From Prevotellaceae bacterium (GTDB lineage: Bacteria; Bacteroidota; Bacteroidia; Bacteroidales; Bacteroidaceae): DNA of 64,000 nucleotides. The stretch lies in contig JABZLB010000007.1 in the NCBI GenBank assembly GCA_015256945.1, forward strand, positions 19,732 through 83,731, read 5' to 3'. The position numbers and the translations under genes are program-made. The notes beneath the pieces are model-generated. The model searched no databases, had not been told where the DNA came from, and worked only from the letters and a program-made list of their open reading frames with translations. Positions 10,441 through 63,906 of the stretch are shown here, piece after piece. Position 1 is the first letter of the stretch. The number at the start of each line of letters is the position of its first letter.

Positions 10441-10501
10441 GTATATAATATGGTTTTGTTACGTATATAATATAAAGTGTAAAAAGGGTTCAAGCAAGAA
10501 G

Positions 10502-11317: not shown

Positions 11318-11467
11318 GATATTGTATTTTATGGGCTTCTTCACCGTTAAGAGATGAAAGAAACGGAACAAAATTACAACAATATAGCTGTGCAGCCAAA
11401 GTATATACACGGAAAATGATTAATTTTGCACCAACAACAGCTCTGCTAATATACCAATATTGCAAAA

Positions 11468-19956: not shown

Positions 19957-20724
19957 ATGAGCACCATCATTTACCCCAGCCCGATATACGGTCCTGTGCA
20001 TAGCCGCCGCCTCGGACTAAGTTTAGGCATAAACCTTATGCCGGCAGACGGCAAGATTTGCACTTTCGACTGCCTTTATTGTGAGTGTGGTTTCAACGCC
20101 GAAAGGCGCACAAGGTCGGCCTATCCCACCCGTGAGGCTGTGGCCGAAGCCCTCGAACGCCAGCTCATTGCGATGCACAACGAGGGTCAACACCCCGATG
20201 TGCTTACCTTTGCAGGCAACGGAGAGCCTACAAGCAACCCTCATTTTGCGGGTATTATCGACGATACCGTACGACTTCGCAACCGCTGGTGTCCCGGAGC
20301 TAAGATTAGTGTGCTGAGCAATTCAACCTTTACGGGGCGGAAAGATATACGGGAAGCCCTGATGAAAGTTGACAATAACATCCTGAAACTCGACACCGTT
20401 GACAACGAATACATACGGCGTGTTGACCGCCCTGTGCAGCCATCGTACGATGTCAGGAAAATCATTGAGAACCTCAAATGGTTCAAAGGGCACGTCATTG
20501 TTCAAACCATGTTCCTCAAAGGCGACGGAACCGACAATACAGGCGAGCAGTATGTGGCACCGTGGATAGAAGCATTGTGCGACATTAAGCCTCAGAGCGT
20601 CATGATATATACCATTGATCGCGAAACACCCGACCTTAAATTGCGCAAGGCTTCGCACGAAGAGCTTGACGCAATATGCCAGCGTGTAATCGACGCTGGC
20701 ATACCTTGTACGGCTTCTTATTAA
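19957..20724 (+). CDS. Radical SAM domain protein
   Basis: Contains the CTFDCLYCECG (CxxxCxxC) cluster; 255 aa. Confidence 0.7.
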   Translation: MSTIIYPSPIYGPVHSRRLGLSLGINLMPADGKICTFDCLYCECGFNAERRTRSAYPTREAVAEALERQLIAMHNEGQHPDVLTFAGNGEPTSNPHFAGIIDDTVRLRNRWCPGAKISVLSNSTFTGRKDIREALMKVDNNILKLDTVDNEYIRRVDRPVQPSYDVRKIIENLKWFKGHVIVQTMFLKGDGTDNTGEQYVAPWIEALCDIKPQSVMIYTIDRETPDLKLRKASHEELDAICQRVIDAGIPCTASY

Positions 20725-44542: not shown

Positions 44543-44841
44543 AAAGCAAATAATACAATAAAAATTTAAAAGTTCTCAATCAGTTTTTATGTCGTCTCTC
44601 TGCCATCGGGACATCATAACCGGCAGATGTTCACGACAGCATTGCAAAGTTATCTAAATTTATTTAAAACCTATATACAATAGTCTCACTTTTGTAATAC
44701 AAAACAGCAATTTCGTAACAAAATACATTTTATTTGCATAAAATGGTAACAAAATGTAAAAATACAAATGTTTTTCGTGGTAAAATAAATTAAAATGGCT
44801 ATTTTTGTAGATAATTGTTGAACTTGTATTACATAGCGCTT

Positions 44842-49020: not shown

Positions 49021-49071
49021 TAATTTATCTGGAATAGCCTGCTTTTTGTTTATGAAAAAGTATGGTACAAT

Positions 49072-49105
49072 AATAAGGGTACCCAGTTTTGATGGTACCC
49101 TTATT
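49072..49105 (+). terminator. Rho-independent terminator of the large T9SS gene
   Basis: AATAAGGGTACC-N10-GGTACCCTTATT followed by ATTTTATT. Confidence 0.6.
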
Positions 49106-49661
49106 ATTTTATTATCAACATTATCCATCCTAAACATTTAATGATACCGTTTTCCTCTGCTCTTTTTCCAGCATGTAAAACCATAAATCAGGCTGTAAAT
49201 CGTGTTCCTTTTTCGTTGTCAACCTCAAACAGAACCACTGTTACATAAAAGAAGTAAGCTTCATAGCGTATTCTTTTTTCAGCCCATAGCTATGCCTCTG
49301 CCCCTTGTTTTCCACTACTCTATCATAAAAAACACACCATTATTAATAAATAATGGTCACACTCTATCTTCATTATCCCTACGTAAATATATCATAAACC
49401 TTATCCAGGCACATCGTAAACTATGTCTCAATATATCACAAACTATATCCAGATACATCATAAATTCATAAATAATATTGCTATACTTCATATATTTTAG
49501 CATAAAATATACCATTCCATACGCTTTATAACAATAAGAAAAAGGCCGACAAGCCTGCTCTATGATTAAAATTAAGCCTGTAAACAGAAAAAGAAAGCCA
49601 AACATTTGGTAAAATAAAAATAAAGCCATACCTTTGCATTCGCTTTACAAAAAGCACTGTT

Positions 49662-49735
49662 GGCGGGATAGCTCAGCTGGTTAGAGCGTCGGATTCATAA
49701 TCCGGAGGTCGTGGGTTCGGGTCCCACCCCCGCTA
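49662..49735 (+). tRNA. tRNA-Met (anticodon CAT; elongator or possibly tRNA-Ile2/lysidine type)
   Basis: GGCGGGATAGCTCAGCTGGTTAGAGCG D-arm, anticodon loop TTCATAA, T-arm GTGGG-TTCGGGT-CCCAC. The anticodon stem lacks the three consecutive G-C pairs of an initiator. The 3' 46 nt are duplicated at 61592-61637. Confidence 0.8.
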
Positions 49736-49754
49736 CGAAGGTTAAAACCTTGAA

Positions 49755-49793
49755 AATAAAGGAATTACAACGACCGTTGTAGTTCCTTTATTT
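49755..49793 (+). terminator. Element-borne terminator hairpin just downstream of the reconstituted tRNA-Met
   Basis: AAATAAAGGAA-TTACAACGACCGTTGTAG-TTCCTTTATTT: 11-bp stem with a palindromic loop. Confidence 0.5.
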
Positions 49794-49809
49794 CGTTAAT
49801 AGTCCATGT

Positions 49810-49834
49810 GGTGAACTTTTGGTGAACTTTCTGA
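49810..49834 (+). repeat. Putative integrase arm-type site, left copy (GGTGAACTTTTGGTGAACTTTCTGA)
   Basis: An identical 25-bp sequence, itself a tandem GGTGAACTTT x2, recurs at 61458-61482 just inside attR. Confidence 0.55.
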
Positions 49835-49883
49835 ACGCAAAGTTACTTCATGCAATCAGATGAAATTCCTTTGTCCTTGTTGT

Positions 49884-51005
49884 TTACTCGATATGTAATT
49901 GTAGTTCTCTCACAAGCTGCCTTATAGCAGGATTATTTTTTATCATCTTTTCTAAGAATCCTTTCTTTAATTGGATAATAGGAAAGTAAAACCTTAATAG
50001 GTGTCGTAGTTCATGCTCTATCAATTCTCTAAATTCCCATTCACCTGAGCTCTCAAACCGATGTGACAAGTATTTCTGTGCCATCTTATCAAATCGATAG
50101 AAGTTTATGAGTAGGTTCGTCTTCCCTAATTTGCCAAAACACCAAATAAATTTACGAACATCATCAAGTGACAAGAAAGAGAAGAAATACTTTTCCCTGT
50201 ATTCCCAGAAAAAACTTTTCTCAAATGCTGTTAGTTCAGCCTTAGATAGTAGCAATTTTGCCAATGCTTGCTGGCATAATTCATCGGGAACATCACGATT
50301 TGTTTTTGCCATGATGTAGAGATACTCGTTATCTGTTAGTAATTCTCGCTTGACATTGTATGCTGGTAATTCTGCCAGTCTTAAGGCTACATGAAAATAG
50401 TCGTCTTGTGCTGTGATTTCGTCTACGTATTGCTTCACATATTGCATCGGGAAGTGCCTAACAATTAGTTTCGCACTCTCTACATTATGATTCTGTTGCC
50501 ATGTATTAATAATCAAATCATACCATTTGTATTTCTGTTTGTCGGGTAAATCAGCCACGATATTCCAGTGTGTTCCCAAAAAATAAGCAGCCCAACCCTG
50601 TTCCGTTCTAATTGATGAGTTAATAAGGAATTGTAGGACTTTAAGCTGTCCATTCCATCCTATGTAGGGGAGCATGCGGCAAAGGATACGCCTGCTATTA
50701 GAATATACTCCTCGCTTTCGTAGCTTTAGGTCATTAAAGTAAGTCTGCCAAGATTTGTAATGTACTACAGGTTTAGCTGGGGTGGGATTACAACGCCAGC
50801 AAATATAAGCAGCCACCTTAGAATGGCAAGATCTTATTTTCTCAGTATCCTTCTCTGAAAGGGTATCAACCATTGCCTTACAAATGACTAAATCGGCACT
50901 ATTAGGATTGGAGTGGCTATTGGCCAGCTTCAAAATAAAATCAATCTTATCCATAACATAGTTTTTCTGCAAAGTTAAATATTGATCTATGCCATAATGC
51001 TTCAT
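49884..51005 (-). CDS. Hypothetical protein (373 aa), IME cargo, divergent from the WYL cassette
   Basis: AT-rich, predicted largely alpha-helical, no recognisable catalytic motif. It is the first gene inside attL. Confidence 0.5.
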   Translation of the reverse strand: MKHYGIDQYLTLQKNYVMDKIDFILKLANSHSNPNSADLVICKAMVDTLSEKDTEKIRSCHSKVAAYICWRCNPTPAKPVVHYKSWQTYFNDLKLRKRGVYSNSRRILCRMLPYIGWNGQLKVLQFLINSSIRTEQGWAAYFLGTHWNIVADLPDKQKYKWYDLIINTWQQNHNVESAKLIVRHFPMQYVKQYVDEITAQDDYFHVALRLAELPAYNVKRELLTDNEYLYIMAKTNRDVPDELCQQALAKLLLSKAELTAFEKSFFWEYREKYFFSFLSLDDVRKFIWCFGKLGKTNLLINFYRFDKMAQKYLSHRFESSGEWEFRELIEHELRHLLRFYFPIIQLKKGFLEKMIKNNPAIRQLVRELQLHIE

Positions 51006-51091
51006 AGATATAATGAATTTATATTTTATTTATCTTATGACACGGTATTCCATAGGAAAATACTTATCTTTGCAACATACACCAATCTAAA

Positions 51092-51893
51092 AATGATAAG
51101 TATGGACAGAAGTATGCTGAATGAGATTATGGGAAGTCTTGATAACTACCCATGCGTTTGCGACTATCGTAATGTATTCGAAGAGTATTACGAAGCGTTT
51201 GCAGACTACATTCCTAGCGGTGAAGAAGACAAAGCATTGCTGATGTTGAAACGTAAATTGTTCCTTCCTCTTAATTTGTCTGATAATGCAAATGGTATTC
51301 TAATTGTCGGTGCTAATCCTTCATACAAAGATGGTGGTCGCGACGAGAATTTTATGAAAACAACAGATGAGCTGTACCATTCAGTAGAGAAGCACTGGAA
51401 GAAAATTTCAGAAATTGCATGCCTTGGAAACAATTATCAGGCTGCCTACCTCGATCTGTTTCCAATAAAGCAAACCAATCTGGGAGACTTTGAGAAGGTC
51501 TTTCGTGCGCATAACGATATAAGGGCTAAGCTGCTGCAAGTAACTCACAAGCGTATGCTAGCTACTCGGCCTATGGTCATTATCAACCTCTTTGCCATGA
51601 CCTCTTATTATTGGGGTTTTAAGGTAGACGCTCCAGACTACTGTAACGAGGATAATCCATGGATGGGTTATAAGTTCAAGAAGATAGATGGTGAAGGGCT
51701 GGATGCATACGAAATTGTTGGCTGGGTGGATAATGCAAAGTCCATTCTTCCTAACGATGAGACAGAAAGACTAGCAAAGGGAACCGTAATTGTATTTAGC
51801 ACGAAAGCATGGGATAAACAGGTGCGAAAAGAGAAAAAGGTTGATAAGAACAAACTGCAAAAGTTATTGCAAAATCTCAACATAGAGTTGTAG
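51092..51893 (+). CDS. Hypothetical protein (~267 aa from MISMDRS) with a possible UDG-superfamily-like motif A
   Basis: The motif GILIVGANPSYKDGG resembles MUG/SMUG motif A (VVFCGINPGLSS); no clear motif B. The ORF ends 3 nt before the WYL gene start. The ORF-track start at 50982 lies in the divergent promoter and is probably too long. Confidence 0.45.
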
Positions 51894-51896
51894 CTT

Positions 51897-52820
51897 ATGT
51901 CTCGCAAGAATGCAAACCTAATCGGTCGATATGTATGGTTGGTGGATCTTCTTCGCCGATATGGGCGACTGACCTTTCAACAAATCAGCGATAGATGGGA
52001 GGAAAGTGGGCTTAGTTATGGTGAACCCTTGGTATGGCGCACTTTCCAAAATCATCGTGATGCCATCTTCGATATTTTTGGCATCAGCATCGAATGTGAG
52101 CGAAAAGGGGACTATGCGTACTACATAGAGTACCCAGAAGTGTTGGAAAATGACCATTTACGTTCGTGGCTCATCAGCAGTTATGCTACGCTCAATCAAC
52201 TTCGGGCCGACGCTTCACTTGAAGGTCGCATTATCTATGAGCAGATTCCCTCGGGTGAGAAATGGCTCACTCTTTTCTGTCAAGCTATGCGAGAAAGTAA
52301 AAAGGTCCGCATAATGCATCGGGGATTTCAGAAATCTGAGCCAATTACTATAGCAATAGAGCCTTATTGTCTGAAAGTAGTGAAACGCAGATGGTATATT
52401 GTTGCTCGCAAGCTGACCGAGTCCAAGAATTACGCTTTCCGAATTTATGCTCTCGACCGCATCGTTGCGGCTACTATTACAGAAGAACCATTTAAGTATG
52501 ATAAGCGATTTGACATCAACAAATTCTTCGAGGGTTGTTGTGGTATAATGCTATCAGATGCACCTGTAGAGCGTGTCGTAGTGAAATCGTATTTTTATGG
52601 TCCAGACTATCTCCGTTCATTGCCACTCCACGCTTCGCAGAAAGAATTGCCCACCAATGACTCTTCATTTGCAATGTTCGAATATCATGTTAAGCCTACC
52701 TTTGATTTTTACTTAAACTTGTTAGGTCAGGCCGACCAATTGGAGGTTATTTCCCCTAAACATGTACGTGAGGAGATGGCTAATCTTGTAAAACACATGG
52801 CTTCTTATTATGGAGATTAA
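51897..52820 (+). CDS. WYL-domain transcriptional regulator (HTH-WYL-WCX; BrxR/CapW-like)
   Basis: N-terminal wHTH (RYVWLVDLLRRYGRLTFQQISDRWEE), central WYL domain (RRWYIVARKL...FRIYALDRIVAA), C-terminal extension. Confidence 0.7.
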   Translation: MSRKNANLIGRYVWLVDLLRRYGRLTFQQISDRWEESGLSYGEPLVWRTFQNHRDAIFDIFGISIECERKGDYAYYIEYPEVLENDHLRSWLISSYATLNQLRADASLEGRIIYEQIPSGEKWLTLFCQAMRESKKVRIMHRGFQKSEPITIAIEPYCLKVVKRRWYIVARKLTESKNYAFRIYALDRIVAATITEEPFKYDKRFDINKFFEGCCGIMLSDAPVERVVVKSYFYGPDYLRSLPLHASQKELPTNDSSFAMFEYHVKPTFDFYLNLLGQADQLEVISPKHVREEMANLVKHMASYYGD

Positions 52821-52924
52821 TATTGCTGAAAAGGATAGATACTTGCTTGTGGGCCGTAATCTATCCTTTTTTAGCTTCATTTATTGATGGTTGTAAATAG
52901 GATATGATGAACATTTTTGAATTT

Positions 52925-54352
52925 CTATCTTCTGAACCTTGGCCTATTCCTTACCTCTTCTTGCTGCTTCTGCTTTTTTTCTAGTCTATCTTGATACCAA
53001 CTGAAGTTATCCATCACGTTCTTTATTTCTGTCTTACCTTTCTCGTGTTCAAACAGATTGAGGAAGGGACGAGTGAAGGTGATGAGGAAGTTGGTACCAC
53101 TGCGGCGATCGTGCGATTCGATGGTGAGGAAATCGTTGACGGCAGAGGCCTGAGGGAAGGTAAAGCACTGTGCCTTGGTGTCGCGGGCAAACTGAATCAC
53201 GGCTTTGATGGCGTTTTGCCAAATGGCGGTGAACTGACTAAGGAAATCGGCAAGACCCGCTTTCATCGTCTCAATAGTTTGGTCACGCTGCTGTAATTCC
53301 TGTTTGAGATTCTCTTCCCGATTCTTTGACTTGGTGAGCAATCCCTTGTAAATGCACTCTTGCTTGTTGCATTCTTCCAGCCAAAAGTCTGCTCGCTCCT
53401 GTTCCTTAGCGATCTCTTCCTTATAGGTGGCTGTCAGACTCTCCACCTGCCGAGCAACTACTTGCGGGATTGCTGCCACCTGCTTCTTCATCTCTATATT
53501 CTCAGCTTCAAGCTGTGCATACTTACCCTTACCAGCAAGATTAGCAAGACCCGACAGGATGGCGTTGCCATTCTCACGGTCTGCCCTTTGTTGCTTCTGC
53601 TTAATCTCCTTGTCAAGAGCTTCGCTCTGTTGGGCCTTTGCTTCATTCTCCTTTTCCAGTTCGATTTTCTTTGCCTTTGCTTCCTCCATCTCTCGCTTCT
53701 GTTTCGCCACGATGTAGTCGTTACGTTCAAGATGCTGTTTGCCTGTTTCCATCTTCGAGTCTCCACGTTCCATCCCAAGAACCTCCGCTACCATGTCCTG
53801 CATTTCGCTGATGTCGTCACTGTTGAGTTTGTAGGATTTTCCTGTATTATGATTCATCCAGTCCCAGATGATATGGGCATGATAGTTGGACTTCCATGAG
53901 GAAGTATCATCGGGGGCTGCAAAATGTCCTTCATCATTATGAATATGTATCTGCAAGACGGTGATACCGAACCTTGACTGACACAGGGAAGCAAAGTGCT
54001 GTAGCTCCTCCATTGTGGTGTCCTGCTTGCAGACAATCACACCCTCACGCAATGGAGTGCAGCCTGCTATCTTCGTAATTTTCCCAGTCTTCTTATTGAC
54101 CTTTTCACGTTCCTTTGTCTGCATCGCTCTGCCAGTCTTTTCCTTTACCATCTTGCCGATGTTGTCATAATACTGTTGCAGGGAAAGTTCCTGCTGTTGG
54201 TCGGCTATCCACGACTGATTACAGGAAGTCAGGTCTTCCCTGATGTAAAGTTTGTCTGCATTGATATGAGCAAGATACTCCTTTGCTCTCTTATTGTGAG
54301 CCTCACTCTGCCCGATGTTGCATGGTTTGATATGTATAGAAGTCTTTGCCAT
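52925..54352 (-). CDS. Mobilization relaxase (MobV/Mob_Pre-like) with C-terminal coiled coil
   Basis: Begins MAKTSIHIKPCNIGQSEAHNKR. It has the HxH-type motif NYHAHIIWDW and a long E/K/Q-rich coiled-coil C-terminus. The start is taken at MAKTS. Confidence 0.65.
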   Translation of the reverse strand: MAKTSIHIKPCNIGQSEAHNKRAKEYLAHINADKLYIREDLTSCNQSWIADQQQELSLQQYYDNIGKMVKEKTGRAMQTKEREKVNKKTGKITKIAGCTPLREGVIVCKQDTTMEELQHFASLCQSRFGITVLQIHIHNDEGHFAAPDDTSSWKSNYHAHIIWDWMNHNTGKSYKLNSDDISEMQDMVAEVLGMERGDSKMETGKQHLERNDYIVAKQKREMEEAKAKKIELEKENEAKAQQSEALDKEIKQKQQRADRENGNAILSGLANLAGKGKYAQLEAENIEMKKQVAAIPQVVARQVESLTATYKEEIAKEQERADFWLEECNKQECIYKGLLTKSKNREENLKQELQQRDQTIETMKAGLADFLSQFTAIWQNAIKAVIQFARDTKAQCFTFPQASAVNDFLTIESHDRRSGTNFLITFTRPFLNLFEHEKGKTEIKNVMDNFSWYQDRLEKKQKQQEEVRNRPRFRR

Positions 54353-54412
54353 AATTAAAATCATTAATTCATTCGATAATACAATAATATTATAATCTCT
54401 TATTATTCTCAT

Positions 54413-54641
54413 AAAGGTTCTTAGGGATAAGCCCTAAGCGGAGAGTCCAGAGAGAGGGTCACGCTCTGGTCAGGGGTCTTGGGGCAGATGCCCATAAGTG
54501 GAGGGTGCAGGGAGAGAGTCACTCCCGCCGGTTCTCCAAGGCAGCGCCTTGGGCCCACAACTACGAAAGGCTTTAGCCGTGTAGTTATAGTGGGCTATAA
54601 CAAGGGCAGAGCCCTGTTCGTTCACCCCAACCCTTCAGCGA
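54413..54641. promoter_or_regulatory. Candidate oriT / mob promoter region
   Basis: GC-rich, immediately upstream of the relaxase. It holds two ~38-bp imperfect direct repeats (~54425-54465 and ~54485-54525) and inverted repeats GTTATAG-TGGG-CTATAAC and GGGC-AGA-GCCC (~54584-54614). Confidence 0.4.
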
Positions 54642-55322
54642 TTATGGACTTCCCCGGCACTTGATTTTATCAATGAGGTATTCGTTAATGTCACGCTTAA
54701 TGAAGCCGTTGTCCACTTTGAACTGGTCGCCAAAGTGCTCGTTCCAATAATCATAAGCCATACTATCAGGGAAAAGTATTACACGTTTACCTCGAAGCCT
54801 GTTCATCATTCGGTCGGTAAGCAGATAACTATTACCTACAGCTATCCAGTCTAGTGATGGCTCTGCAAGCGTTCCCAGTAAAGCAGTCTTTTCCTCCATG
54901 ACTACAGCTATGGGGTTACTAGAAAGCAGGTGCTCGCCAAAGAACACCTCCCAGTCTGTATAATAGTCGAAGCAATACCACGAATAAAGATGGTCCGTAA
55001 TAGGGTCTTTACGGAGAATGCTGCCGTTATCTACATCAAAGTATATTACTTCACCGCCAACAACCTTTCCGCTTTCATTGATACGGGGTAATACTGATCC
55101 GTAATGTCCGTTGATAACAGTGCTCACTGCCCCTAAGTGGAATCGTGAGATCAGATCGTCAATCTTTCGCATCATAGAGGCATCATAGTTCACCAGCTTG
55201 TCGAGATAATCCGTCAGGGAAGAGTGATGCAGGCTAATATCCGACTTGGGTATTTCGATGAGTAACCGTTCATACACTGGCGCCTTTGTTGCCATTATAC
55301 GCTTTAATTCGTCCTGTTCCAT
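54642..55322 (-). CDS. Hypothetical protein (226 aa), possibly a Toprim-like/primase accessory domain
   Basis: Position between the AAA/HTH gene and the mob/oriT region. It has a weak Toprim-like acidic patch (VILFPDSMAYDYW). Confidence 0.35.
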   Translation of the reverse strand: MEQDELKRIMATKAPVYERLLIEIPKSDISLHHSSLTDYLDKLVNYDASMMRKIDDLISRFHLGAVSTVINGHYGSVLPRINESGKVVGGEVIYFDVDNGSILRKDPITDHLYSWYCFDYYTDWEVFFGEHLLSSNPIAVVMEEKTALLGTLAEPSLDWIAVGNSYLLTDRMMNRLRGKRVILFPDSMAYDYWNEHFGDQFKVDNGFIKRDINEYLIDKIKCRGSP

Positions 55323-55393
55323 AATCTTCGTGATTTAGTTTTATGCAGTTTATGCACTTATGCATACTGCATAAAGTGAATAAAGTGCATAAA

Positions 55394-56368
55394 TCAGCTA
55401 TTCAACAGCCTTGAAACCTTACTTTGGGTGATGCCACACTCCTTGGCAATATCCTGCTGGCGCATGCCACGGGCAGAAAGTTCCTTGACTCTTTGCCTTA
55501 GTTCGTCTCGTTCATTGGTGGTCTCTGCACTCAGATGGGCAACTTCCGCATCATATCCCCGAAAGGTGAAACACAGATTACCCTCTGCATTTTTGCCTCG
55601 CTCGTAGAGAGCTACGTTATCAGAATCGAGAATCACCTCACCATTGCGCCATTTGCACTGCTTGACATAGACAAGCGATTTATCCTTTTGGGATTGCGCC
55701 AGCCCTACCGCATCATCTATGAGTTGATTCAGCTTGGCAGAGCCTTGGATGGCCGAAAGGGAAAGAGGAAGGGTACCTGAATACATCTTGGGCACATGAT
55801 TCAGTACAACCAGCGTCCAGTTATACTTCTTCTTTAGCCCATTGAGTGAAGCCATGAGTGAACCCGCATCGGCTCCTTTGTCGAGCGATTGACTAAGAGC
55901 CGTGATATTGTCGATAAATACTACCTCGGCTAAATTTGCCACCGCAGCCTGTTCTATGCCTTGCAGAACATTGTCGATAGGATTGTCCCTGTCCATTTCC
56001 GCACGAAAGAAGGTCGGAGGAAAGTTGGCTGACTCGTAGCGCAAGCACAACTGGCGCAGCGTCATCTCAAAGTCAGCATAGAGCACTCGTTTCCCTTTGG
56101 CAGCAATTTCCCTTGCCACCTGCATGGCAAAGATGGTCTTGCCGATACCCGACTGTCCGAAGATGATGCACAGATCACCTTCGAGGACAATATTGGGATA
56201 GAGAACTATAAGGGGAGGAAGCGACAGCCCTTTGATCAGACAGTCGTTCATGGATGCCACATGAAAGCTACCTGCATCTACCGCCTCTTTTACTTGAAGC
56301 TGCTGAAATGAAGAAAGGATATAGTCTTCATCTGGTGGCTTGGGGATTGTTTTCACAAGTTCGTCCAT
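55394..56368 (-). CDS. AAA/RecA-like ATPase with a C-terminal HTH (replicative or primase-helicase loader-like protein of mobilizable elements)
   Basis: Walker A motif GQSGIGKT, Walker B motif VVFIDN. The C-terminal HTH is MRQQDIAKECGITQSKVSRLL. Confidence 0.6.
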   Translation of the reverse strand: MDELVKTIPKPPDEDYILSSFQQLQVKEAVDAGSFHVASMNDCLIKGLSLPPLIVLYPNIVLEGDLCIIFGQSGIGKTIFAMQVAREIAAKGKRVLYADFEMTLRQLCLRYESANFPPTFFRAEMDRDNPIDNVLQGIEQAAVANLAEVVFIDNITALSQSLDKGADAGSLMASLNGLKKKYNWTLVVLNHVPKMYSGTLPLSLSAIQGSAKLNQLIDDAVGLAQSQKDKSLVYVKQCKWRNGEVILDSDNVALYERGKNAEGNLCFTFRGYDAEVAHLSAETTNERDELRQRVKELSARGMRQQDIAKECGITQSKVSRLLNS

Positions 56369-56379
56369 ATTGCTCCACC

Positions 56380-56676
56380 TTATATATTAGTATTGCTCAT
56401 GGATGAGCCTTGCGTGATGAGCGCATCCACCTCCTCCTTGGAATAGAGGTTGCGACGTCCAATCTTATGCACATGAACCTCACCACGCTTCTCCATACGC
56501 CAGAGCGTAGTATAAGTGATGTGCAGGCGTGCGCAAAGCTCGTCACGGGTTAAATACTCGACATCGTCCTTTGGTTTCTGTCCTGTCAGAAGGTTCTTGC
56601 CAACCATAGCCTCTAATACTTCTGCAATCGCCTCCTTGAGATCGTCTTTTTGCAGCATGATAAAATTTCCTTGCAT
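56380..56676 (-). CDS. Small HTH DNA-binding protein (excisionase/MerR-like)
   Basis: 98 aa. The motif LTRDELCARLHITYTTLWRMEKRG is typical of Xis/AlpA-type HTH proteins. Confidence 0.5.
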   Translation of the reverse strand: MQGNFIMLQKDDLKEAIAEVLEAMVGKNLLTGQKPKDDVEYLTRDELCARLHITYTTLWRMEKRGEVHVHKIGRRNLYSKEEVDALITQGSSMSNTNI

Positions 56677-56913
56677 ATCGTGAATGTTTAAAATGATGCC
56701 GCAAAAGTATCATGGAATTACATGGAATTATGCCCACATGGTACCCACATGGGTACTATATGGATATGGAAGAGAAATAAAAATGCCCATGCAAGCAAAG
56801 GCTCACATGGGCTTATTAAATTTTTGTGTGTTTGGATAGTTTAGCTTATATTTTATAAGTTGGGATACAAAAAAGGAGTTTCAAAACACCTCCTCTCTGC
56901 ATTTTACTGCACT

Positions 56914-57141
56914 TTACTTCTTTCCTTTATATAACCTCTTCATCCATAGGAACTCTAAAACGTAAATAAGTATTCCCCAACATAGATAAAATCCGCCTTC
57001 GTAAGACATTGTCGATAAGGCATCCATCCATAACATACTATATAAAGTTAACACAAGAATACTACCTAAAACGAATAGTATGTTCTTATGGAAGTCTGGG
57101 TTGTAAGTGAGAAATACCAAGATGAAGCCTCCACTATACAA
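56914..57141 (-). CDS. Small 2-TM membrane protein (75 aa), hypothetical
   Basis: Two hydrophobic helices; no homology recognised. Confidence 0.3.
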   Translation of the reverse strand: MYSGGFILVFLTYNPDFHKNILFVLGSILVLTLYSMLWMDALSTMSYEGGFYLCWGILIYVLEFLWMKRLYKGKK

Positions 57142-57339
57142 GGCCTCACTAAAACTATATATAGCAGGCCACTTGCGAAATCGTCCTTAGTTCTAAAGTT
57201 TGCCTCGATTATCTCTACAACAACTAGGTATATAATGGCAAAAAAATGATGGAAATAATTTTCTTAATGTTGTTCATTACGTAATATTCTATATAATCTT
57301 GCCATTGGCAAATATATTAATTAGAATCTAAGGTAAAAG

Positions 57340-58170
57340 CTACTTGAAAATTGACTCTACGACTTCATGTCCTGAAGGTAGTTTGCCAGTCTTGTTTGTA
57401 TAGGTGTTTTTGCAGGTCGCAAGTCCGGAAACATCAAATAAGGTTTCAAAGGGCTTCCAATATGTTTTCTTCTTTCCGTCTTGCTCTGCCTGTGAAAGAT
57501 TCAGATATTCGCTGGCACAGTCGGCAAAGTAAGCAAGAAGAAACTTGGACTTTTGCCAATGGTATTCCTTATCGCACAGGCCTAAGCCAATAGCTTTGCT
57601 AATAATTTGCTGAGCTTCTTTTGATTGAAGCTCGACAGGCATTTGCTTTTCTTCATTTTTCGGTATATTTGGAGTATTCGTAACCTGTATGTCTGTGCCA
57701 AAGAAGTGGTTCCAGCCTTCCTGTGTCTTGATGCCGTTCTGTATGCTCGTCTTAATCAACTGCTCTTTTAAATCAGTAAAGCTGTTCTGTTCCAACCGTT
57801 CCTTAGCTTCCTCCGCCTTTATAACAATCTTCGATACAAGCGTTTCATACAAGTTGCCACAGACAAGCCAATACGATAGAGTGTTCTTTATTCTGCCATA
57901 TCGAAAGAAATTCATGTTGCCCTCATGCAGCAAAAATACCATCGCACCAACAATGGTATCTCCAACTCTCGTGTAATTGTTAGAAAACAATATCGGGAAA
58001 TCGTGCTGACTTACTATATTTTCTGACCCGTTTGACTTTGAAGTATAGGCATATAGATGCATAACCCCTTCAAAGCTCTGCTTCTTTAGGTCGTTGATGA
58101 TACGGTCTGCTGCTATCTTGTTGGCTTGATACCAAGCCTCTGCGGATTCTTTATCTAAGTCTTTGCCCAT
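57340..58170 (-). CDS. Hypothetical protein (276 aa), IME cargo immediately downstream of abiEii
   Basis: No signal peptide and no motif recognised. It lies 30 bp downstream of the AbiEii gene on the same strand. Confidence 0.45.
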   Translation of the reverse strand: MGKDLDKESAEAWYQANKIAADRIINDLKKQSFEGVMHLYAYTSKSNGSENIVSQHDFPILFSNNYTRVGDTIVGAMVFLLHEGNMNFFRYGRIKNTLSYWLVCGNLYETLVSKIVIKAEEAKERLEQNSFTDLKEQLIKTSIQNGIKTQEGWNHFFGTDIQVTNTPNIPKNEEKQMPVELQSKEAQQIISKAIGLGLCDKEYHWQKSKFLLAYFADCASEYLNLSQAEQDGKKKTYWKPFETLFDVSGLATCKNTYTNKTGKLPSGHEVVESIFK

Positions 58171-58200
58171 TGCATCCTGTTTATTTGTTTATATAGTTTC

Positions 58201-59208
58201 TTATCCTCTAAATCTATCTCGTAGTACTTTTATCCTATCCAATAGATCCTCAAAAGAAAGATGGTCACCATAGATGAAATCGTGTGTCATTTGCTCGTAG
58301 TCATTTCTCCATTCGTTTAAGACGGATGAAGGAGGGTAAAAGTCGATGGTGTCTCTTTTCAGTTTGTCATAATCAGCATATTTCAGAGCATAGAATGTAC
58401 GGCGGTGTTCTATTATATCGTCATAGAGTTGCTTGTCTTCCAAGGCTTGAATACCAAATTCGGTATCCATCAGCTTTTCCAAATCGTATAAGTGGCGGCT
58501 CATTCTCATAGAACGAGGATGCTCTTTCTGAAATTCCTCGCACAAAAGAAAAGCTTTTTCAAGGAATGTCCTTGTTGGCAGCACAGTTCTGAATGTCACC
58601 TTACAATCATCATCTTCAGGAAATATCTGAGAAATATAAGATTGCAGATCAACTTCTTCTGTAGGCTCTGCCATTGACAAGCAACTAATCTCTATTTTCA
58701 CCCAAGGGGAAACATAATTGCTACTGTTTGGTATAATACTCTTGTAGTCAACCATGATGACAGTAGGATCCTTGTCGGAGTCTATGGGCTTTAGACCATC
58801 CTTTGTTTCCACTTCTGTTACGTTTCTTACGTTATAATCAACAACTCCCAGTTGGTTCAACGCCTGTTCTATTTTAGACTTCAATACATCTTGGATATAG
58901 CTACGAGATTTCTTCCTAAGGCGTTCCCTTTGGCTTTTGGATGTGGATGATATTGCGAAATCTCCTTCTCGTCTTATAGATAAATCAATATCCTCACTGA
59001 AACGGTCTATCAATCCGAATCCCTTAGAAAGCGATGTACCACCCTTGAAATTAAGCAGATGCGCAATAGAGGTCATGGATAGAGCCTTGAGCACCATTGT
59101 CACCCACCAGTCTTTTTCGATGGCGGTAGGCGACAAGTGCCTTTCTCTGCTAACTGCATTTAGCATAGCCAAACGCTCTTGTATGTTATGCTGTTGCCAA
59201 TGTATCAT
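58201..59208 (-). CDS. abiEii: AbiEii/AbiGii-family nucleotidyltransferase toxin (type IV TA / abortive infection)
   Basis: DUF1814 signature FKGGTSLSKGFGLIDRFSEDIDL; 335 aa. Confidence 0.75.
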   Translation of the reverse strand: MIHWQQHNIQERLAMLNAVSRERHLSPTAIEKDWWVTMVLKALSMTSIAHLLNFKGGTSLSKGFGLIDRFSEDIDLSIRREGDFAISSTSKSQRERLRKKSRSYIQDVLKSKIEQALNQLGVVDYNVRNVTEVETKDGLKPIDSDKDPTVIMVDYKSIIPNSSNYVSPWVKIEISCLSMAEPTEEVDLQSYISQIFPEDDDCKVTFRTVLPTRTFLEKAFLLCEEFQKEHPRSMRMSRHLYDLEKLMDTEFGIQALEDKQLYDDIIEHRRTFYALKYADYDKLKRDTIDFYPPSSVLNEWRNDYEQMTHDFIYGDHLSFEDLLDRIKVLRDRFRG

Positions 59209-59212
59209 ATCC

Positions 59213-59821
59213 TTATTTGGTTATTTCCTTAAAAAAATTCTGCATCCATGCCGGGGCCAAAGATATATCTTTCTTTATAAGCTGGGCTTCTGCTGGATTG
59301 TCTTGAATAAGCCTGTATATGGCAGACATTTCTTCATTGGTCACGTTTCCTTTCCCAATATTGCGTAATGCCTGCACAAGCATTGCCATCATTTTGCTTT
59401 TATAAGCGAAGTTTCGGGGCACGCTTCGGATGAAACTTATTTCACTACCATCGACCTTTACAGTTCTTGGAGAGCCCGTAGTTAGATAGTTTACCTTAGT
59501 CGGAACCTGTGTTGATAGCCCTAAGATATTAAGAGCTGCGGCACCTGTCGGCATAATCTCAACTTGATCACGTTTGGCAATGGCTTCAGCTATCTCATAT
59601 AACGATGGCTTTAATGGACCAAACTTAGTAGCAACCGACTTACAGTAAATGCCAGGCGATAAACGCTCGATTAATCCCTTTTGTTCTGCTATACTTAATA
59701 CCTGCTGGACATAATTAGCACTACTTATGTCCGTGAAGTCGCTAACAAAAAGCACACAAGGTGCTTTCATCTTGTCTAAACGACCAAGTATTAACTCTGT
59801 ACTACCAGCTTGATTTAACAT
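59213..59821 (-). CDS. abiEi: AbiEi-like antitoxin / transcriptional regulator partner of AbiEii
   Basis: About 200 aa, located 4 bp upstream of abiEii on the same strand. The size and position are typical of AbiEi/DUF6088-type partners. Confidence 0.5.
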   Translation of the reverse strand: MLNQAGSTELILGRLDKMKAPCVLFVSDFTDISSANYVQQVLSIAEQKGLIERLSPGIYCKSVATKFGPLKPSLYEIAEAIAKRDQVEIMPTGAAALNILGLSTQVPTKVNYLTTGSPRTVKVDGSEISFIRSVPRNFAYKSKMMAMLVQALRNIGKGNVTNEEMSAIYRLIQDNPAEAQLIKKDISLAPAWMQNFFKEITK

Positions 59822-59924
59822 TCGTTTGTAGGAATTATTGACAATATTTCATAGGCAAAGATAACTATTCTATAGCTATATGCAAAATATTCCTTTAATT
59901 TTTCTGCCCCATGCGGCACTTTTT

Positions 59925-61421
59925 TCAAATTGAAGCCAATAATTCTTCGCGTTCAGCCTCAGTCATACTCTTCAAAAGCGTCAAGAGCTCCTGTTTGCTT
60001 GTAGCTTGTTGGCTACTCTTTTCCCTTTCATTAAGCAGGTACCAGTTATATTCCACCATTTTTTCCAAAGGGTAAGCACCAATGTAGTTCGAAGTTATGT
60101 CGCCAGAGCTGCTATGCCCCATACTATCACTGATGTATTTGTAGGGCACCTTGCCAGAATTGTTCAGATTGGTGGCGAAACTGTGGCGAGCCCATGTGGA
60201 GGTAGGCTTTTGCTCCAAACCAAGAATATCCGCAACCTTCCCCATGTGCTTTCCTATATACTTGTTGTATCGTTGAATCACCCAAAGTTCCTTGTCGGGC
60301 ATGATAAGTGTAGGCAAGATAGGGAATACTCGTTTGCCCAACTTCGGTTCATTGCCATATTCCTCGATTATTTTCTTTAGTTCTGGAGTAATGGGAAATA
60401 TCACTTCGCTTGCACTCTCGTTTCTGTCATGCGTTTTCTGGCGGTAGAAGCGAAATTGCTTACCGTGTGTGGCGAAATACCATTCATCATACTCCAGCCG
60501 TAAAGTGTCTGCGAGGTTCTGCCCATCACCAAGATACATGAAAAGGAACAATCCCACGTCACGGAACACAGCTTCCTTTTCATGGGAATAGAATTGTTCT
60601 TTGCCGTTCTCATCTTTAGCTTCTTTCCTCTCCCAGAAATCATAGAGCTTGCGCATAGTTGCGACATCAAGGAACTCATGCTTCCTGCTATTGGACTTGT
60701 TATAGCCTGTGTCCTTGAACATTTCTCGGGTGTCACCTTTGATTAACCCTTGCTCAATGCAGATGTTCACAATGGCTCTGAATGTACGGAGACTGATGCC
60801 AATGGTTGTGGCACTCAATCCGTACTTCTTTAAGGCTTTTGACCATTTCAAGATGAAAGCCCTGTCAATATCGCCAAACTCAACATTGCTTCCCATTGTT
60901 TTGACAAAGCGACGCTTCACATCTACATTGGTTCTGGCAGTACCCAACTTGTCAATCTTTCTGTCCTCTATGTATTTATCCCAAACAGAATAGATAGTCC
61001 GCTCTTCTGGAGTGATGCCGCTGAAACGCTCTTGTAATTTCTTTAGAGTGAAGATGCCGTCTTCAACAAGTTTGTTTACCATCAACTCAACCCTTAATAT
61101 GCGTGCTCTCAGTTCCTTTCGCTCGTTAGCGTTTTTATTGCGACCTAGACGTTCAAGCTCACAAAGCATCTTCCACTCATCCAACTTGTATTTCTTGCCA
61201 ATGCGCAAGTAAACCTTTTTACCATTATATTGGATTCTGATAGCAGCTGGGAGTTCTTGCTGATCATCTCCACTGGCTCTTCGAGGATCCAGCATAAGCG
61301 TGCCTGTAATACTACCATTTGAAGAGACAAACTTGGCAAAAGCGGTCTCTCCGCGGTCTTTATACTGTTTATTTGACAAAAACAGCTTATCGGTGAACTT
61401 TCTGAAATTTTCCTCCATCAT
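59925..61421 (-). CDS. int: Tyrosine site-specific integrase
   Basis: C-terminal catalytic region ARHSFAT ... MGHSSSGDITSNYIG with an N-terminal SAM-like/arm-binding domain. It lies adjacent to attR. Confidence 0.85.
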   Translation of the reverse strand: MMEENFRKFTDKLFLSNKQYKDRGETAFAKFVSSNGSITGTLMLDPRRASGDDQQELPAAIRIQYNGKKVYLRIGKKYKLDEWKMLCELERLGRNKNANERKELRARILRVELMVNKLVEDGIFTLKKLQERFSGITPEERTIYSVWDKYIEDRKIDKLGTARTNVDVKRRFVKTMGSNVEFGDIDRAFILKWSKALKKYGLSATTIGISLRTFRAIVNICIEQGLIKGDTREMFKDTGYNKSNSRKHEFLDVATMRKLYDFWERKEAKDENGKEQFYSHEKEAVFRDVGLFLFMYLGDGQNLADTLRLEYDEWYFATHGKQFRFYRQKTHDRNESASEVIFPITPELKKIIEEYGNEPKLGKRVFPILPTLIMPDKELWVIQRYNKYIGKHMGKVADILGLEQKPTSTWARHSFATNLNNSGKVPYKYISDSMGHSSSGDITSNYIGAYPLEKMVEYNWYLLNEREKSSQQATSKQELLTLLKSMTEAEREELLASI

Positions 61422-61457
61422 AAAATGTAGTGTTTATAGGGGTTGCAGAGATAAATC

Positions 61458-61482
61458 GGTGAACTTTTGGTGAACTTTCTGA
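61458..61482 (+). repeat. Putative integrase arm-type site, right copy
   Basis: GGTGAACTTTTGGTGAACTTTCTGA, identical to 49810-49834. Confidence 0.55.
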
Positions 61483-61591
61483 CCTCAATTCTGTGCAAAT
61501 TTACGGAATTTCAAGAAATCTACAAAATAAATAACTAACTAATTATCAGCTATTTGCAATCTTTTGCAATTTTGAGAAACACCCATAAATA

Positions 61592-61637
61592 GGATTCATA
61601 ATCCGGAGGTCGTGGGTTCGGGTCCCACCCCCGCTAC
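61592..61637 (+). repeat. attR: 46-bp duplicate of the tRNA-Met 3' end
   Basis: Identical to 49691-49736. Confidence 0.85.
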
Positions 61638-61640
61638 ATA

Positions 61641-61677
61641 AAAAGCCTCGTGAATCGTTGATTTACGAGGCTTTTTA
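61641..61677 (+). terminator. Rho-independent terminator immediately after attR (the original tRNA-Met terminator, displaced by the insertion)
   Basis: AAAAGCCTCGT-N13-ACGAGGCTTTTT. Confidence 0.6.
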
Positions 61678-61970
61678 CGTAATTACTGTGAAAGAGGAAG
61701 ATAAAAAACAATGTAAAGTCCTGCTTTCTGTATCAATAAGCCTCAACCCTATTGATACCCGGCAAATAGATAAAATACTAAAAACCTTTGCTTCCACGAA
61801 GTCTTAAAGTATAAAACAAAGCATCTTCTTGTCATGAACAGGCTTTGTTTTTCAACCATAAACGCTTATAATATATTACAACAAGAACATCTTCCTGTCA
61901 AATTACCAACGCCTCTGCATTACCTATAAAACAAAAGGGGCTGAACTTCAGCCCCTTTCCTTCAAACAAG

Positions 61971-62043
61971 TCGGGATTACTGGACTCGAACCAGCGACCT
62001 CGCGCCCCCCAGACGTGTGCGCTACCAACTGCGCTAAATCCCG
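61971..62043 (-). tRNA. tRNA-Pro (anticodon GGG)
   Basis: The reverse complement reads CGGGATT-TA-GCGC-AGTTGGTA-GCGC-A-CACGT-CTGGGGG-GCGCG-AGGTC-GCTGG-TTCGAGT-CCAGT-AATCCCG-A. There is one A:C mismatch in the anticodon stem. A terminator hairpin follows at 61934-61959. Confidence 0.7.
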
Positions 62044-62203
62044 TTGTTTTGTGGTGCAAAGGTAATGATTACTACTGTAATCTCCAAATTTTATATATAT
62101 TTTTTAATGTAAGGGCATCTAAACAACGATTTAAAACGGCTGTAACAAGGCTGTTTCGCTGCTATTTTGTACATTTGCAATATATATGAAATAAGCTTAT
62201 TCA

Positions 62204-63472
62204 ATGGTAACATACGATATAAAGGCTCCGCGAATGCTCAATGCTGATATTATGCTGCCGGCGTCGAAAAGCATCAGCAACAGGGCACTCATTATCCATG
62301 CCCTGGCCGGAGGTGATGCCTTACCGCAAAATTTATCGGATTGCAATGATACACACGTTGTGCTTCAAGCGCTGAATACCCGTCCTTCTGTGATTGACAT
62401 TGGTGCTGCCGGCACCGCAATGCGCTTCCTTACAGCCTATCTGGCAGCAACAAGCGGCACGTACACACTCACGGGGTCCGACCGTATGAAGCAGCGACCA
62501 ATAGGTATTTTAGTTGATACACTGCAAAAACTGGGTGCCGACATCAGTTATTTAGAACAACAAGGCTATCCTCCTCTACTTATCAAAGGACATCAATTGC
62601 ATGGCGGAAGCATAGAAATTCCTGGCCACGTAAGCTCACAATTCATCTCTGCATTGCTGTTAACGGCTCCTGTCATGACCACAGGGTTAGAGCTTCGATT
62701 ACGTGGTGAAATTGTTTCGCGACCATATATCGACCTCACGCTTTGCACAATGAAGCAGTTTGGAGCTGATGCCGACTGGACCGATACTTGTACAATACGC
62801 GTCAATCCCGTCGCTTACGAAGAGCATCCGTTCTTAATTGAAAACGACTGGACGGCGGCAAGCTACTGGTACGAAACCGTAGCTTTGTATGCTCCTGGGC
62901 AGGCAAGTGTGTGCCTTCACGGGCTTATGGACGGGTCACGACAGGGTGATGCCATCGTAAAATACATTTTTTCGCTACTCGGTGTAAAGACAACCTTTGA
63001 TACCGTTGCCCCTGGAGGGCCTGCCAACGTAAGGCTAACACGCCACGAGGGCTGTGTAGACAGGCTCAATTACAACTTTATTAATTGTCCCGACCTGGCA
63101 CAAACCATTGCCGTTACCTGCTGTGCAATGGGGGTTTTATTCAGATTTGACGGGCTCGCCAGCCTGAAGATAAAAGAAACCGACCGCCTTATGGCTTTGC
63201 AAAAAGAGCTTAGAAAATTAGGCTATGTGGTAGAAATTGAGAATGACAACGCTTTAATATGGAACGGGGAAACATGCAAACCGACCTCAACTACGATTGA
63301 TACTTACGACGATCACCGCATGGCTATGGCCTTTGCACCGCTTGCCGTAAGGAAGGGAAGTCTGCAAATTAACCATCCCGACGTAGTAACCAAGTCGTAT
63401 CCGCGCTTTTGGAACGATATGGCATCGGCGGGTTTTCATATCAGCAGTAACGGTAAGGTTCTGGAAGAATAA
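62204..63472 (+). CDS. aroA: 3-phosphoshikimate 1-carboxyvinyltransferase (EPSP synthase)
   Basis: 422 aa with AroA motifs (LPASKSISNRALI, GNAGTAMRFL, RPI). Confidence 0.9.
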   Translation: MVTYDIKAPRMLNADIMLPASKSISNRALIIHALAGGDALPQNLSDCNDTHVVLQALNTRPSVIDIGAAGTAMRFLTAYLAATSGTYTLTGSDRMKQRPIGILVDTLQKLGADISYLEQQGYPPLLIKGHQLHGGSIEIPGHVSSQFISALLLTAPVMTTGLELRLRGEIVSRPYIDLTLCTMKQFGADADWTDTCTIRVNPVAYEEHPFLIENDWTAASYWYETVALYAPGQASVCLHGLMDGSRQGDAIVKYIFSLLGVKTTFDTVAPGGPANVRLTRHEGCVDRLNYNFINCPDLAQTIAVTCCAMGVLFRFDGLASLKIKETDRLMALQKELRKLGYVVEIENDNALIWNGETCKPTSTTIDTYDDHRMAMAFAPLAVRKGSLQINHPDVVTKSYPRFWNDMASAGFHISSNGKVLEE

Positions 63473-63504: not shown

Positions 63505-63906
63505 ATGCTATACTTATTTTTAGGAATCGTCATTCTGGGCTGCATAGCCGGAGCCTTCGAACTTATCTCGCAACGTTTTGACGGTAAGGAACAGCCCATA
63601 CGTGTACAAAAAGGCGACTGTTCAACCTGTTCGGGCGACGATTCGGCCTGCGAACAGGTGTGCATGATGCAGGCAGCTACGAAGGATATTGTTTATTTTG
63701 ACGATGAAGAACTGGATATTTACCGCGGCCGACCTTCAGACGGCTACAATGCTGACGAAACCGAGCAATTTGCAGAAGTGCTGGAAACGCTCCGCCCTAC
63801 GGAGATAAAAGAGTGGAACCGCAGTCTTATCCTCCGTGGAATCAACATGCCCGACGGCATCAAAGACGAATATTTTGCTTTGGTTTCTTCGGCCGGGGAG
63901 GCATAA
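63505..63906 (+). CDS. Hypothetical membrane-anchored Cys-rich small protein
   Basis: N-terminal TM, CSTCSGDDSACEQVC cysteine cluster; 133 aa. Confidence 0.35.
   Translation: MLYLFLGIVILGCIAGAFELISQRFDGKEQPIRVQKGDCSTCSGDDSACEQVCMMQAATKDIVYFDDEELDIYRGRPSDGYNADETEQFAEVLETLRPTEIKEWNRSLILRGINMPDGIKDEYFALVSSAGEA

Follow-up and report, generated by a model that had tools for sequence, protein, structure and literature searches.

An 11.9-kb block in the 3′ part of a tRNA-Met gene of an oral Prevotellaceae bacterium is very probably an integrative mobilizable element with two cargo slots

We asked what occupies the space between two copies of the 3′ part of a tRNA-Met(CAT) gene in a 64,000-nt stretch of Prevotellaceae bacterium DNA (GenBank assembly GCA_015256945.1, contig JABZLB010000007.1, positions 19,732 to 83,731, forward strand; hereafter the window, whose own numbering is used throughout), how it came there and what it carries. 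An earlier interpretation of the letters alone (the sequence-only reading) had proposed an NBU-like integrative mobilizable element (IME) of 11.9 kb. After following up this proposal, we consider it very probable that the block is an IME that entered the 3′ part of the tRNA-Met gene through site-specific recombination.

The ends of the block are exact. A repeat search of the window returned the perfect 46-nt direct repeat on which the proposal was built, with one copy at 49691–49736 (attL core) and one at 61592–61637 (attR core), both on the plus strand and 11,901 nt apart from start to start; such a perfect 46-mer repeat within 64 kb is far beyond chance. It begins within the 5′ strand of the anticodon stem and covers the tRNA from there to its 3′ end. 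The tRNA-Met(CAT) gene (49662–49736, plus strand; ARAGORN; Rfam tRNA, 61.7 bits) remains intact after integration, its last 46 nt being the attL copy, and attR holds the displaced 3′ part. The gene could alternatively encode tRNA-Ile2(CAT). A terminator had been predicted behind each att site, and both are present. After attL, an element-borne hairpin with a T-rich tail (49754–49793, plus strand; 19-nt inverted repeat, 95% complementary; −25.3 kcal/mol, z −6.6) takes the place of the tRNA's own terminator, and directly after attR, in host DNA, lies a hairpin with a U tail (61638–61677, plus strand; −24.2 kcal/mol, z −7.4). Because this attR-type terminator directly follows the uninterrupted tRNA-Met gene in empty sites, it is the original terminator of the tRNA. 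The block had also been called AT-rich; the direction is right, but the difference is modest (41.9% G+C versus 46.4% in the remainder of the window).

The same ends recur in other hosts. Wherever the tRNA side is present (10/10 loci), the attL core is followed by the identical element sequence "gaaggttaaaacc", and in 10 loci retrieved through the integrase, which represent at least four flank contexts, the attR core is followed by host-specific terminator sequence. All 20 other copies (20/20) share one architecture, namely the tRNA 5′ part, core and constant element sequence at one end and constant element sequence, core and host terminator at the other. In some attR copies the first core position is T and not G, so attP and attB are identical over 45–46 bp.

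The decisive comparison is with strains of the same species that lack the element. Conspecific contigs were found by exact-protein look-ups with a 133-aa open reading frame (ORF; 63505–63906) and a 90-aa ORF (49357–49629); a look-up with the EPSP synthase returned a single short contig only. In the conspecific contigs, the adhesin gene, the 90-aa ORF, tRNA-Met, tRNA-Pro and the EPSP synthase gene are contiguous. We joined window positions 48737–49736 to 61638–62637, and this synthetic empty site of 2,000 nt aligned over its whole length without a gap to seven conspecific contigs, with 99.05% identity to two of them (L083 and L091), 98.4% to L089 and 97.5–97.8% to L086, L087, L093 and L095. Conspecific strains thus join 49736 directly to 61638, and the empty site that the sequence-only reading had called for exists. 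A pattern scan of metagenomes for empty sites found other species only, in 11 contigs that match just the tRNA and its terminator; in each, an uninterrupted tRNA-Met gene is followed by an attR-type terminator. A chance or generic duplication of a tRNA fragment was considered and ruled out: the repeat always stands beside an integrase, the partial tRNA copy adjoined the integrase gene in every case examined, and empty sites hold one copy.

The block also moved recently. The identical 498-aa integrase is present in 226 blocks of the assembly collection and, on the longest contigs, in at least four chromosomal neighbourhoods, including one in Prevotella denticola GCA_018128205.1; the window itself matches an oral "Prevotellaceae bacterium" metagenome-assembled genome. 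Five copies from different flanks, retrieved through an identical protein and hence by a selection that favours recent copies, are 99.93–99.98% identical over 11.2 kb, while their host flanks are 70–78% identical or unalignable. Because the element is almost identical while the flanks are strongly diverged, this comparison of sequences shows that the element spread recently between species. Additionally, its presence differs among strains of one species. A prophage was ruled out as there are no structural genes, and an integrative conjugative element as there are no type IV secretion system (T4SS) genes.

The enzyme that would have performed the insertion adjoins attR, as proposed. It is a tyrosine integrase of 498 aa (59925–61421, minus strand) that matches Phage_int_SAM_5 (E 8e-12), more weakly Phage_integrase (E 6.4e-5), and a PHROG integrase family (E 6.8e-19). 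In an alignment of the window's protein with 20 relatives, R308, K329, H436 and Y446 are invariant and R412 is found in 20 of the 21 sequences, so that the catalytic set R308, K329, R412, H436 and Y446 is conserved in this family. The exception is the relative in P. denticola NCTC13067 (L034; integrase at 10001–11488), which has Q at the position of R412 and is therefore probably inactive. Five exact copies of GGTGAACTTT occur in the window, and all five lie at the element ends on one strand (plus). Two are in tandem with an 11-bp phase at 49810 and 49821 (49810–49830; candidate P′ arm), and three begin at 61392, 61458 and 61469 (61392–61478; candidate P arm). Tandem GGTGAA(C/A)TT repeats are found at the same position in 10 of 35 related loci scanned. 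These repeats are probably arm-type sites bound by the integrase. The Xis-like protein of the sequence-only reading (56380–56676, minus strand) matches Pfam HTH_17 (E 1.8e-9), a PHROG excisionase family and TIGR01764 "excise" (30.3 bits; cut-off 28.8), and it is probably the excision factor, or recombination directionality factor. Overall, we propose that attP on the circular form and the tRNA-Met(CAT) gene of the chromosome are recombined by the integrase inside the 45–46-bp identity block. The element would thereby provide a replacement 3′ part of the tRNA together with its own terminator, and the original 3′ part and terminator would be pushed to attR.

Targeting of tRNA(CAT) is a trait of the family. 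Integrases 56–79% identical to the window's are encoded at 44 loci of species-representative genomes, in Prevotella, Segatella, Hallella, Xylanibacter, Bacteroides, Phocaeicola and other genera; the identical integrase is absent from these genomes, the best match being 79%. The gene order Int-(DUF6043)-HTH_17-AAA_25-DUF6371-Mob is common to about 20 of the 44 loci. A 3′ fragment of tRNA(CAT), comprising the anticodon loop and T-loop, lies 170–340 bp upstream of int in 31 of 35 relatives scanned. A related element in Prevotella sp. tc2-28 (L043) is bounded by 46-bp repeats that derive from another tRNA(CAT) (9760–9805 and 20150–20195), and it has a 21-bp repeat containing two arm-like units close to both ends. 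Because the 31 loci and L043 all show a 3′ fragment or repeat of tRNA(CAT), comparison of these loci marks insertion at tRNA(CAT) genes, with identity that reaches from the anticodon stem to the 3′ end, as characteristic of the family. Such blocks accompany a crossover in the anticodon loop in tRNA-integrating recombinases. At L043, a second, unrelated integrase (29% identity) immediately follows the element, and ARAGORN found no intact tRNA at that locus, which looks like a tandem accretion of elements at one tRNA gene.

How would such an island leave its host cell? The candidate is Mob (52925–54352, minus strand), a protein of 475 aa whose N-terminal part has a relaxase (HUH) fold and whose C-terminal part is a coiled coil. 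The AlphaFold (AF2) model of residues 1–225 has a pLDDT of 84.5, and its top Foldseek matches in the PDB are R1162 MobA (E 5e-4, probability 1.0) and NES (E 4.8e-3), both of the MOBQ class; MobM is outside the first 50 PDB matches. Sequence searches of the window's Mob against Pfam, NCBIfam, PADLOC, PHROGs and the PDB gave no family match, and searches with a 15-sequence Mob profile returned nothing usable. Homologues were more informative. A tblastn search against plasmids returned 158 records, mainly of Bacteroidales; source annotations name the homologues "recombinase" or "plasmid recombination enzyme", and those on plasmids "mobilization protein". On plasmid pBFP35, the sole relaxase candidate is 40% identical to Mob over aa 1–213 (E 1e-37) and passes the PF03432 (MobA/VirD2-like) threshold (E 2.3e-6, 28.3 bits against a cut-off of 24.6). 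MOB-suite types this protein as MOBV, and its NCBI name is "NBU/pMV158-type mobilization protein". Therefore, on the basis of the modelled structure and the homologues, we assign Mob to the Bacteroidales "NBU/pMV158-type" group of mobilization proteins with a relaxase fold.

Whether the more specific label of MobV-type relaxase, which the sequence-only reading had given, fits Mob varies with the scheme of classification applied. Pfam Mob_Pre (PF01076) does not match the window's Mob even at E≤10, any of 15 homologues at E≤1, or the Mob proteins of pBFP35 and of the cfxA element CP103138.1; the profile and fold matches lean instead towards MobA/VirD2-like relaxases, although PF03432 matches the window's Mob only at E 8 and 6 of the 15 close homologues weakly (best E 0.009). 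The invariant residues of the family are H19, N20, R22, Y26, H138, D140, E141, H158 and H160. MOBV relaxases are characterized by motif I, HxxR, and motif III, HxDE...HxH, and both H19-N-x-R22 and H138-x-D140-E141...H158-x-H160 fit them. The invariant Y26, four residues past R22, also resembles the catalytic-tyrosine motif of MOBQ relaxases. In one published scheme, NBU1, NBU2 and Tn4555 are filed under MobP and Tn5520 under MobV (PMC5704250).

Upstream of mob, the gap to the DUF6371 gene (54413–54641, minus strand; 230 nt) is occupied by a conserved non-coding region with several hairpins, which had been noticed earlier as a repeat-rich region resembling an origin of transfer (oriT). Across an alignment of 12 elements whose Mob proteins are 39–88% identical to the window's, its conservation exceeds that of the flanking proteins; it holds long invariant runs, e.g. 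TATAGCCCACTATAACTAC...CTTTCGTAGTT, and a core inverted repeat with GTGGGC at about 54551–54600. RNAalifold predicted a series of short hairpins, in which 97.9% of the alignment cells are paired (structure restricted to local helices). Among 47 pairs, 14 changed on both sides, against 5.6±1.7 in shuffled alignments (0/500 reached 14) and 1–3 in slid controls; this comparison is to be read with the structure derived from the same alignment and the three most distant sequences forming one clade. Conserved G·U(T) pairs occur in the hairpins at positions 32–43, 103–131, 112–121 and 243–268 of this alignment (A5). As G·U pairs become C·A on the opposite strand, the structure is specific to the mob-sense strand. 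Over 61 nt, the core shares 84% identity with the sequence in front of mob in CP103138.1, and an 18-nt palindromic version of it precedes mob in pBFP35. Rfam gave no match for the region, neither at the gathering threshold over the window, where only two tRNAs were found, nor at E≤1 over the region.

Because this region is conserved, covaries and is shared with CP103138.1 and pBFP35 upstream of mob, its sequence likely represents an oriT. A point that counts against this assignment is that the hairpins could form a structured 5′ untranslated region of mob, and the specificity for the mob-sense strand fits a transferred single strand and a mob 5′ leader RNA alike. According to the reference list of PMC5704250, the Tn4555 oriT has been mapped by experiment and described as akin to a Gram-positive plasmid family.

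All backbone genes lie on the minus strand, and every one is intact. The AAA/HTH protein of the sequence-only reading is an AAA_25 (RecA/DnaB-like) ATPase with a C-terminal helix-turn-helix (55394–56368, minus strand; Pfam AAA_25 E 4.8e-15 and HTH_23; PHROG "DNA primase/helicase" E 7.6e-23). It is followed by a DUF6371 protein (54642–55322, minus strand; Pfam DUF6371 E 2.4e-27) in conserved synteny, which is possibly a primase-like partner of the ATPase. A DUF6043 protein (57340–58170, minus strand; Pfam DUF6043 E 3.9e-8) completes the backbone; about 10 related loci, from 9 species representatives, have its gene adjacent to slot 1 or to the integrase. Two smaller features lie between the DUF6043 and HTH_17 genes. 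One is a strong hairpin with a T tail at 56785–56812; the other is a small ORF (56914–57277, minus strand) that a stop interrupts after about 17 codons in the window, whereas its product has 120 aa in five further copies and 70 aa in L007. Family profile scans of the element's 11 genes found no T4SS or coupling-protein domains, and we suggest on this ground that the island depends on a co-resident conjugative element. After excision, Mob would nick the putative oriT just upstream of its own gene, a single strand would be exported through the mating apparatus of that co-resident element, and the AAA_25/HTH ATPase and DUF6371 protein would probably aid replication or priming of the transferred circle.

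In its general plan, the element is an ordinary tRNA-targeting IME of the Bacteroidota with a Tn4555-like transfer module. By sequence comparison, the nearest identifiable relative of that module is a cfxA/Tn4555-type element, CP103138.1. This is a 10,057-bp circular "plasmid" record of B. fragilis. Besides cfxA and the AAA-DUF6371-Mob module, it encodes an excisionase, an integrase and a transposase, and its annotation lacks a replication initiator; it resembles a Tn4555-type mobilizable transposon that was assembled in its excised, circular form. MOB-suite, which classes it as non-mobilizable, therefore misses this type of relaxase. Its genes run in the order excisionase, AAA, DUF6371, Mob and cfxA, and further round HTH, integrase and transposase. 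An excisionase-type HTH protein, the AAA_25/HTH ATPase, DUF6371, Mob and the placement of cargo directly after mob are shared with the window's element, with identities of 47% for Mob (aa 2–293), 35% for the ATPase and 28% for DUF6371. However, the CP103138.1 homologue combines a Zn-ribbon with DUF6371, whereas the window's DUF6371 protein has no Zn-ribbon, and the CP103138.1 integrase, a 372-aa protein with an Arm-DNA-bind_5 domain, has no tblastn similarity to ours. The cargo is also different, a beta-lactamase in the Tn4555 type and defence-type genes here. Tn4555 is a helper-dependent IME that carries cfxA and has preferred insertion sites outside tRNA genes (PMC5704250), unlike the window's element in its tRNA-Met gene.

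NBU1 and NBU2 are small IMEs with a tyrosine integrase and a single relaxase that insert into the 3′ ends of tRNA-Leu and tRNA-Ser and rely on CTnDOT-type elements for transfer; in NBU1, a toxin-antitoxin pair is present as well (PMC5704250). What stands of the NBU comparison is the tyrosine-integrase insertion into a tRNA 3′ end and, as in NBU1, a toxin-antitoxin pair. At the sequence level, the link consists of the NCBI name "NBU/pMV158-type mobilization protein" on a Mob homologue. In contrast to NBU1 and NBU2, the target here has the anticodon CAT, and the identity block extends over 45–46 bp from the anticodon stem. The NBU1 and NBU2 cores are about 13–14 bp long. Similarly, the putative IME MTnPi4 of Prevotella intermedia has a tyrosine integrase and lies in a tRNA-Leu 3′ end (PMC5704250); compared by description only, it shares the genus and the insertion into a tRNA 3′ end with our element but uses a different tRNA. 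A megablast search of the whole element against PLSDB plasmids returned a tRNA match only.

Certain observations weigh against the IME interpretation: the near-identical copies were selected as described above, the window's Mob matches no family in sequence searches, and the predicted attP junction (...CCCATAAATA[G/T]GATTCAT...CGCTAC and then GAAGGTTAAAACC...) that an excised circle would carry turned up neither in IMG/VR nor among the fetched loci. We considered whether the block could be a phage satellite, i.e., an island resembling phage-inducible chromosomal islands (PICI-like) that is induced and packaged by a helper phage and not moved by conjugation. Like the block, satellites typically combine an integrase with an AlpA/Xis-like HTH_17 protein and a primase/helicase-like ATPase, the integration site is a tRNA gene, and in other strains the adjacent tRNA-Pro is occupied by a prophage-like element. 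However, the block encodes a relaxase-fold Mob whose homologues are the mobilization proteins encoded on small Bacteroides plasmids and on a cfxA/Tn4555-type element, and it shares with them the oriT-like sequence upstream of mob. Moreover, searches of Pfam and PHROGs gave no capsid, terminase-small-subunit or packaging-related matches, and IMG/VR viral contigs hold neither integrase relatives nor the attP junction. A satellite is therefore very unlikely. Least credible of all is a decayed island that is now immobile and inherited only vertically, for which the missing circular form, the interrupted small ORF and the loss of catalytic R412 in L034 could be cited, because near-identical copies sit in genomes with strongly diverged flanks, presence varies within a species, no backbone gene is disrupted and copies in other species encode the identical integrase.

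The surroundings of the IME vary among strains as well. About 330 bp to the right of attR, tRNA-Pro(GGG) (61970–62043, minus strand) is a second integration hot spot (61929–62043 in the window). Seven conspecific contigs (L077, L080, L081, L084, L088, L090 and L094) carry there a prophage-like element of about 50 kb that encodes a 1,320-aa DnaG/Toprim protein, a Peptidase_S49 protein and two tyrosine integrases; its junctions are at about 61929 and 61984, with a 56-bp overlap that includes the last 15 nt of tRNA-Pro. Upstream of tRNA-Met, a strain-variable surface protein of 1,401 aa with Cleaved_Adhesin and CarboxypepD_reg domains is encoded at 44815–49020 (plus strand). Across strains it has 1,392, 1,400 or 1,401 aa, and in L016 it is split into parts of 587 and 780 aa.

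What does the IME offer to its hosts? We propose that it has two swappable slots with genes that would benefit the host, AbiEi and AbiEii in slot 1 and, in slot 2, a protein of uracil-DNA-glycosylase (UDG) fold with a 373-aa partner under a WYL/WCX regulator. Slot 1 bears out the predicted AbiE pair: the AbiEi antitoxin/regulator (59213–59821, minus strand; Pfam DUF6088 E 1.6e-44; PADLOC E 3.5e-57) and the AbiEii nucleotidyltransferase toxin (58201–59208, minus strand; Pfam AbiEii E 5.7e-30; PADLOC E 5.9e-95) are encoded on the same strand 4 nt apart, the arrangement of AbiE type IV toxin-antitoxin/abortive infection systems. In relatives, this position holds other DNA.

Slot 2 (49737–52914) contains the WYL-regulator cassette that had been predicted, and in addition a gene whose product was recognized by its fold. 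The regulator (51897–52820, plus strand; Pfam WYL E 1e-11 and WCX E 1e-5; PADLOC WYL E 1e-24) has a BrxR/CapW-like architecture and no PDB sequence match at E≤0.01. Directly before it lies p263 (51102–51893, plus strand; 263 aa), a member of an unannotated family and the candidate effector of the slot, and divergent from this operon lies p373 (49884–51005, minus strand; 373 aa). Neither p263 nor p373 has a match in Pfam, NCBIfam, PADLOC or PHROGs, nor p373 in the PDB, and homologues of p373 form 5 clusters only. For p263, 15 word-indexed clusters were found, and a profile search extended them to 363 representative clusters. The family alignment shows a G-x-N-P-S motif followed by AYLDLFP, YYWG and PWMGY; in p263 the first is G70-x-N72-P73-S74, of which N72 and P73 are invariant in 60 diverse members. 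Motif 1 of UDGs, which includes the catalytic residue, is of the G-x-N-P-G type in MUG, TDG and SMUG1. The closest folds are the repair glycosylases MUG, TDG, SMUG1 and the family 4/5 UDGs; Foldseek ranked the same families first, but with E>0.1. Pfam UDG (PF03167) does not match p263 and is weak in 4 of the 60 relatives (best E 0.041), with E 0.005 in one multi-domain relative. Overall, the assignment of p263 to the UDG alpha/beta fold is solid, and glycosylase activity is a prediction from this fold.

The genomic company of p263 bears on its role. Distant homologues (about 30% identical) adjoin a WYL/WCX gene at two loci (L097 and L101), with 36% identity between the WYL proteins. At L097, the gene next to the pair encodes a 324-aa protein that is weakly p373-like (21% over 177 aa, pairwise E 1e-6), and at L101 the p263 homologue is flanked by HipA toxin-antitoxin-type genes. 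The gene arrangement of the p373-p263-WYL triad recurs at L104, where the p373 homologue is close, the 302-aa neighbour in the WYL position has no Pfam call, and the triad adjoins a transposase. Sister elements (L004, L009–L011) are 95.3% identical to the window's from attR to exactly the mob stop codon, and past it a DDE transposase (insertion sequence, IS) and GmrSD replace the slot 2 cassette. GmrSD is a type IV restriction enzyme that acts on modified DNA. Brig1 and Brig2 are UDG-fold proteins, proven antiviral enzymes, on mobile elements or in defence islands. Compared by description only, p263 resembles them in this location and differs in being paired with a WYL/WCX regulator and a 373-aa partner. 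Regulators of the wHTH-WYL-WCX type are known as neighbours of defence systems, and CapW senses single-stranded DNA (PMC9122601, PMC11662680).

On the strength of this WYL-defence association, the antiviral Brig1 and Brig2 and the exchange of the slot with GmrSD, we speculate by analogy that slot 2 (49884–52820) might be a previously undescribed anti-phage system, a suggestion that we regard as tentative. The WYL-WCX repressor would silence p263 until infection or DNA damage, and p263, maybe together with p373, would excise modified phage bases as Brig1 and Brig2 do. It is also possible, if doubtful, that p263 is a repair or self-protection enzyme, which would for example clear the transferred single strand of uracil or damaged bases, or that it has the fold without glycosylase activity, and has no part in defence. 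The repair glycosylases among its closest folds point in this direction, as does the failure of any PADLOC defence model to match p263 or p373; additionally, DNA-damage responses are likewise under the control of WYL regulators, and CapW responds to single-stranded DNA (PMC11662680). However, sister elements place GmrSD in the slot of p263, the element carrying p263 also bears AbiE, the L101 homologue lies amid HipA-type genes and the L104 triad stands beside a transposase, all of which speak for the anti-phage role.

Overall, the locus provides a clean and well-delimited case of very recent interspecies exchange in the human oral microbiome. The covarying hairpin region upstream of mob offers a defined substrate for mapping the nick site in a poorly classified relaxase family, and the pair of UDG-fold protein and WYL regulator makes a concrete, testable candidate to join the recently found antiviral DNA glycosylases. 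The family is modular, with one conserved backbone and two cargo slots, one for AbiE and one for either the WYL-UDG cassette or an IS with GmrSD. Because it combines this backbone with exchangeable cargo slots, the family is a natural place to seek new defence genes of Prevotella.

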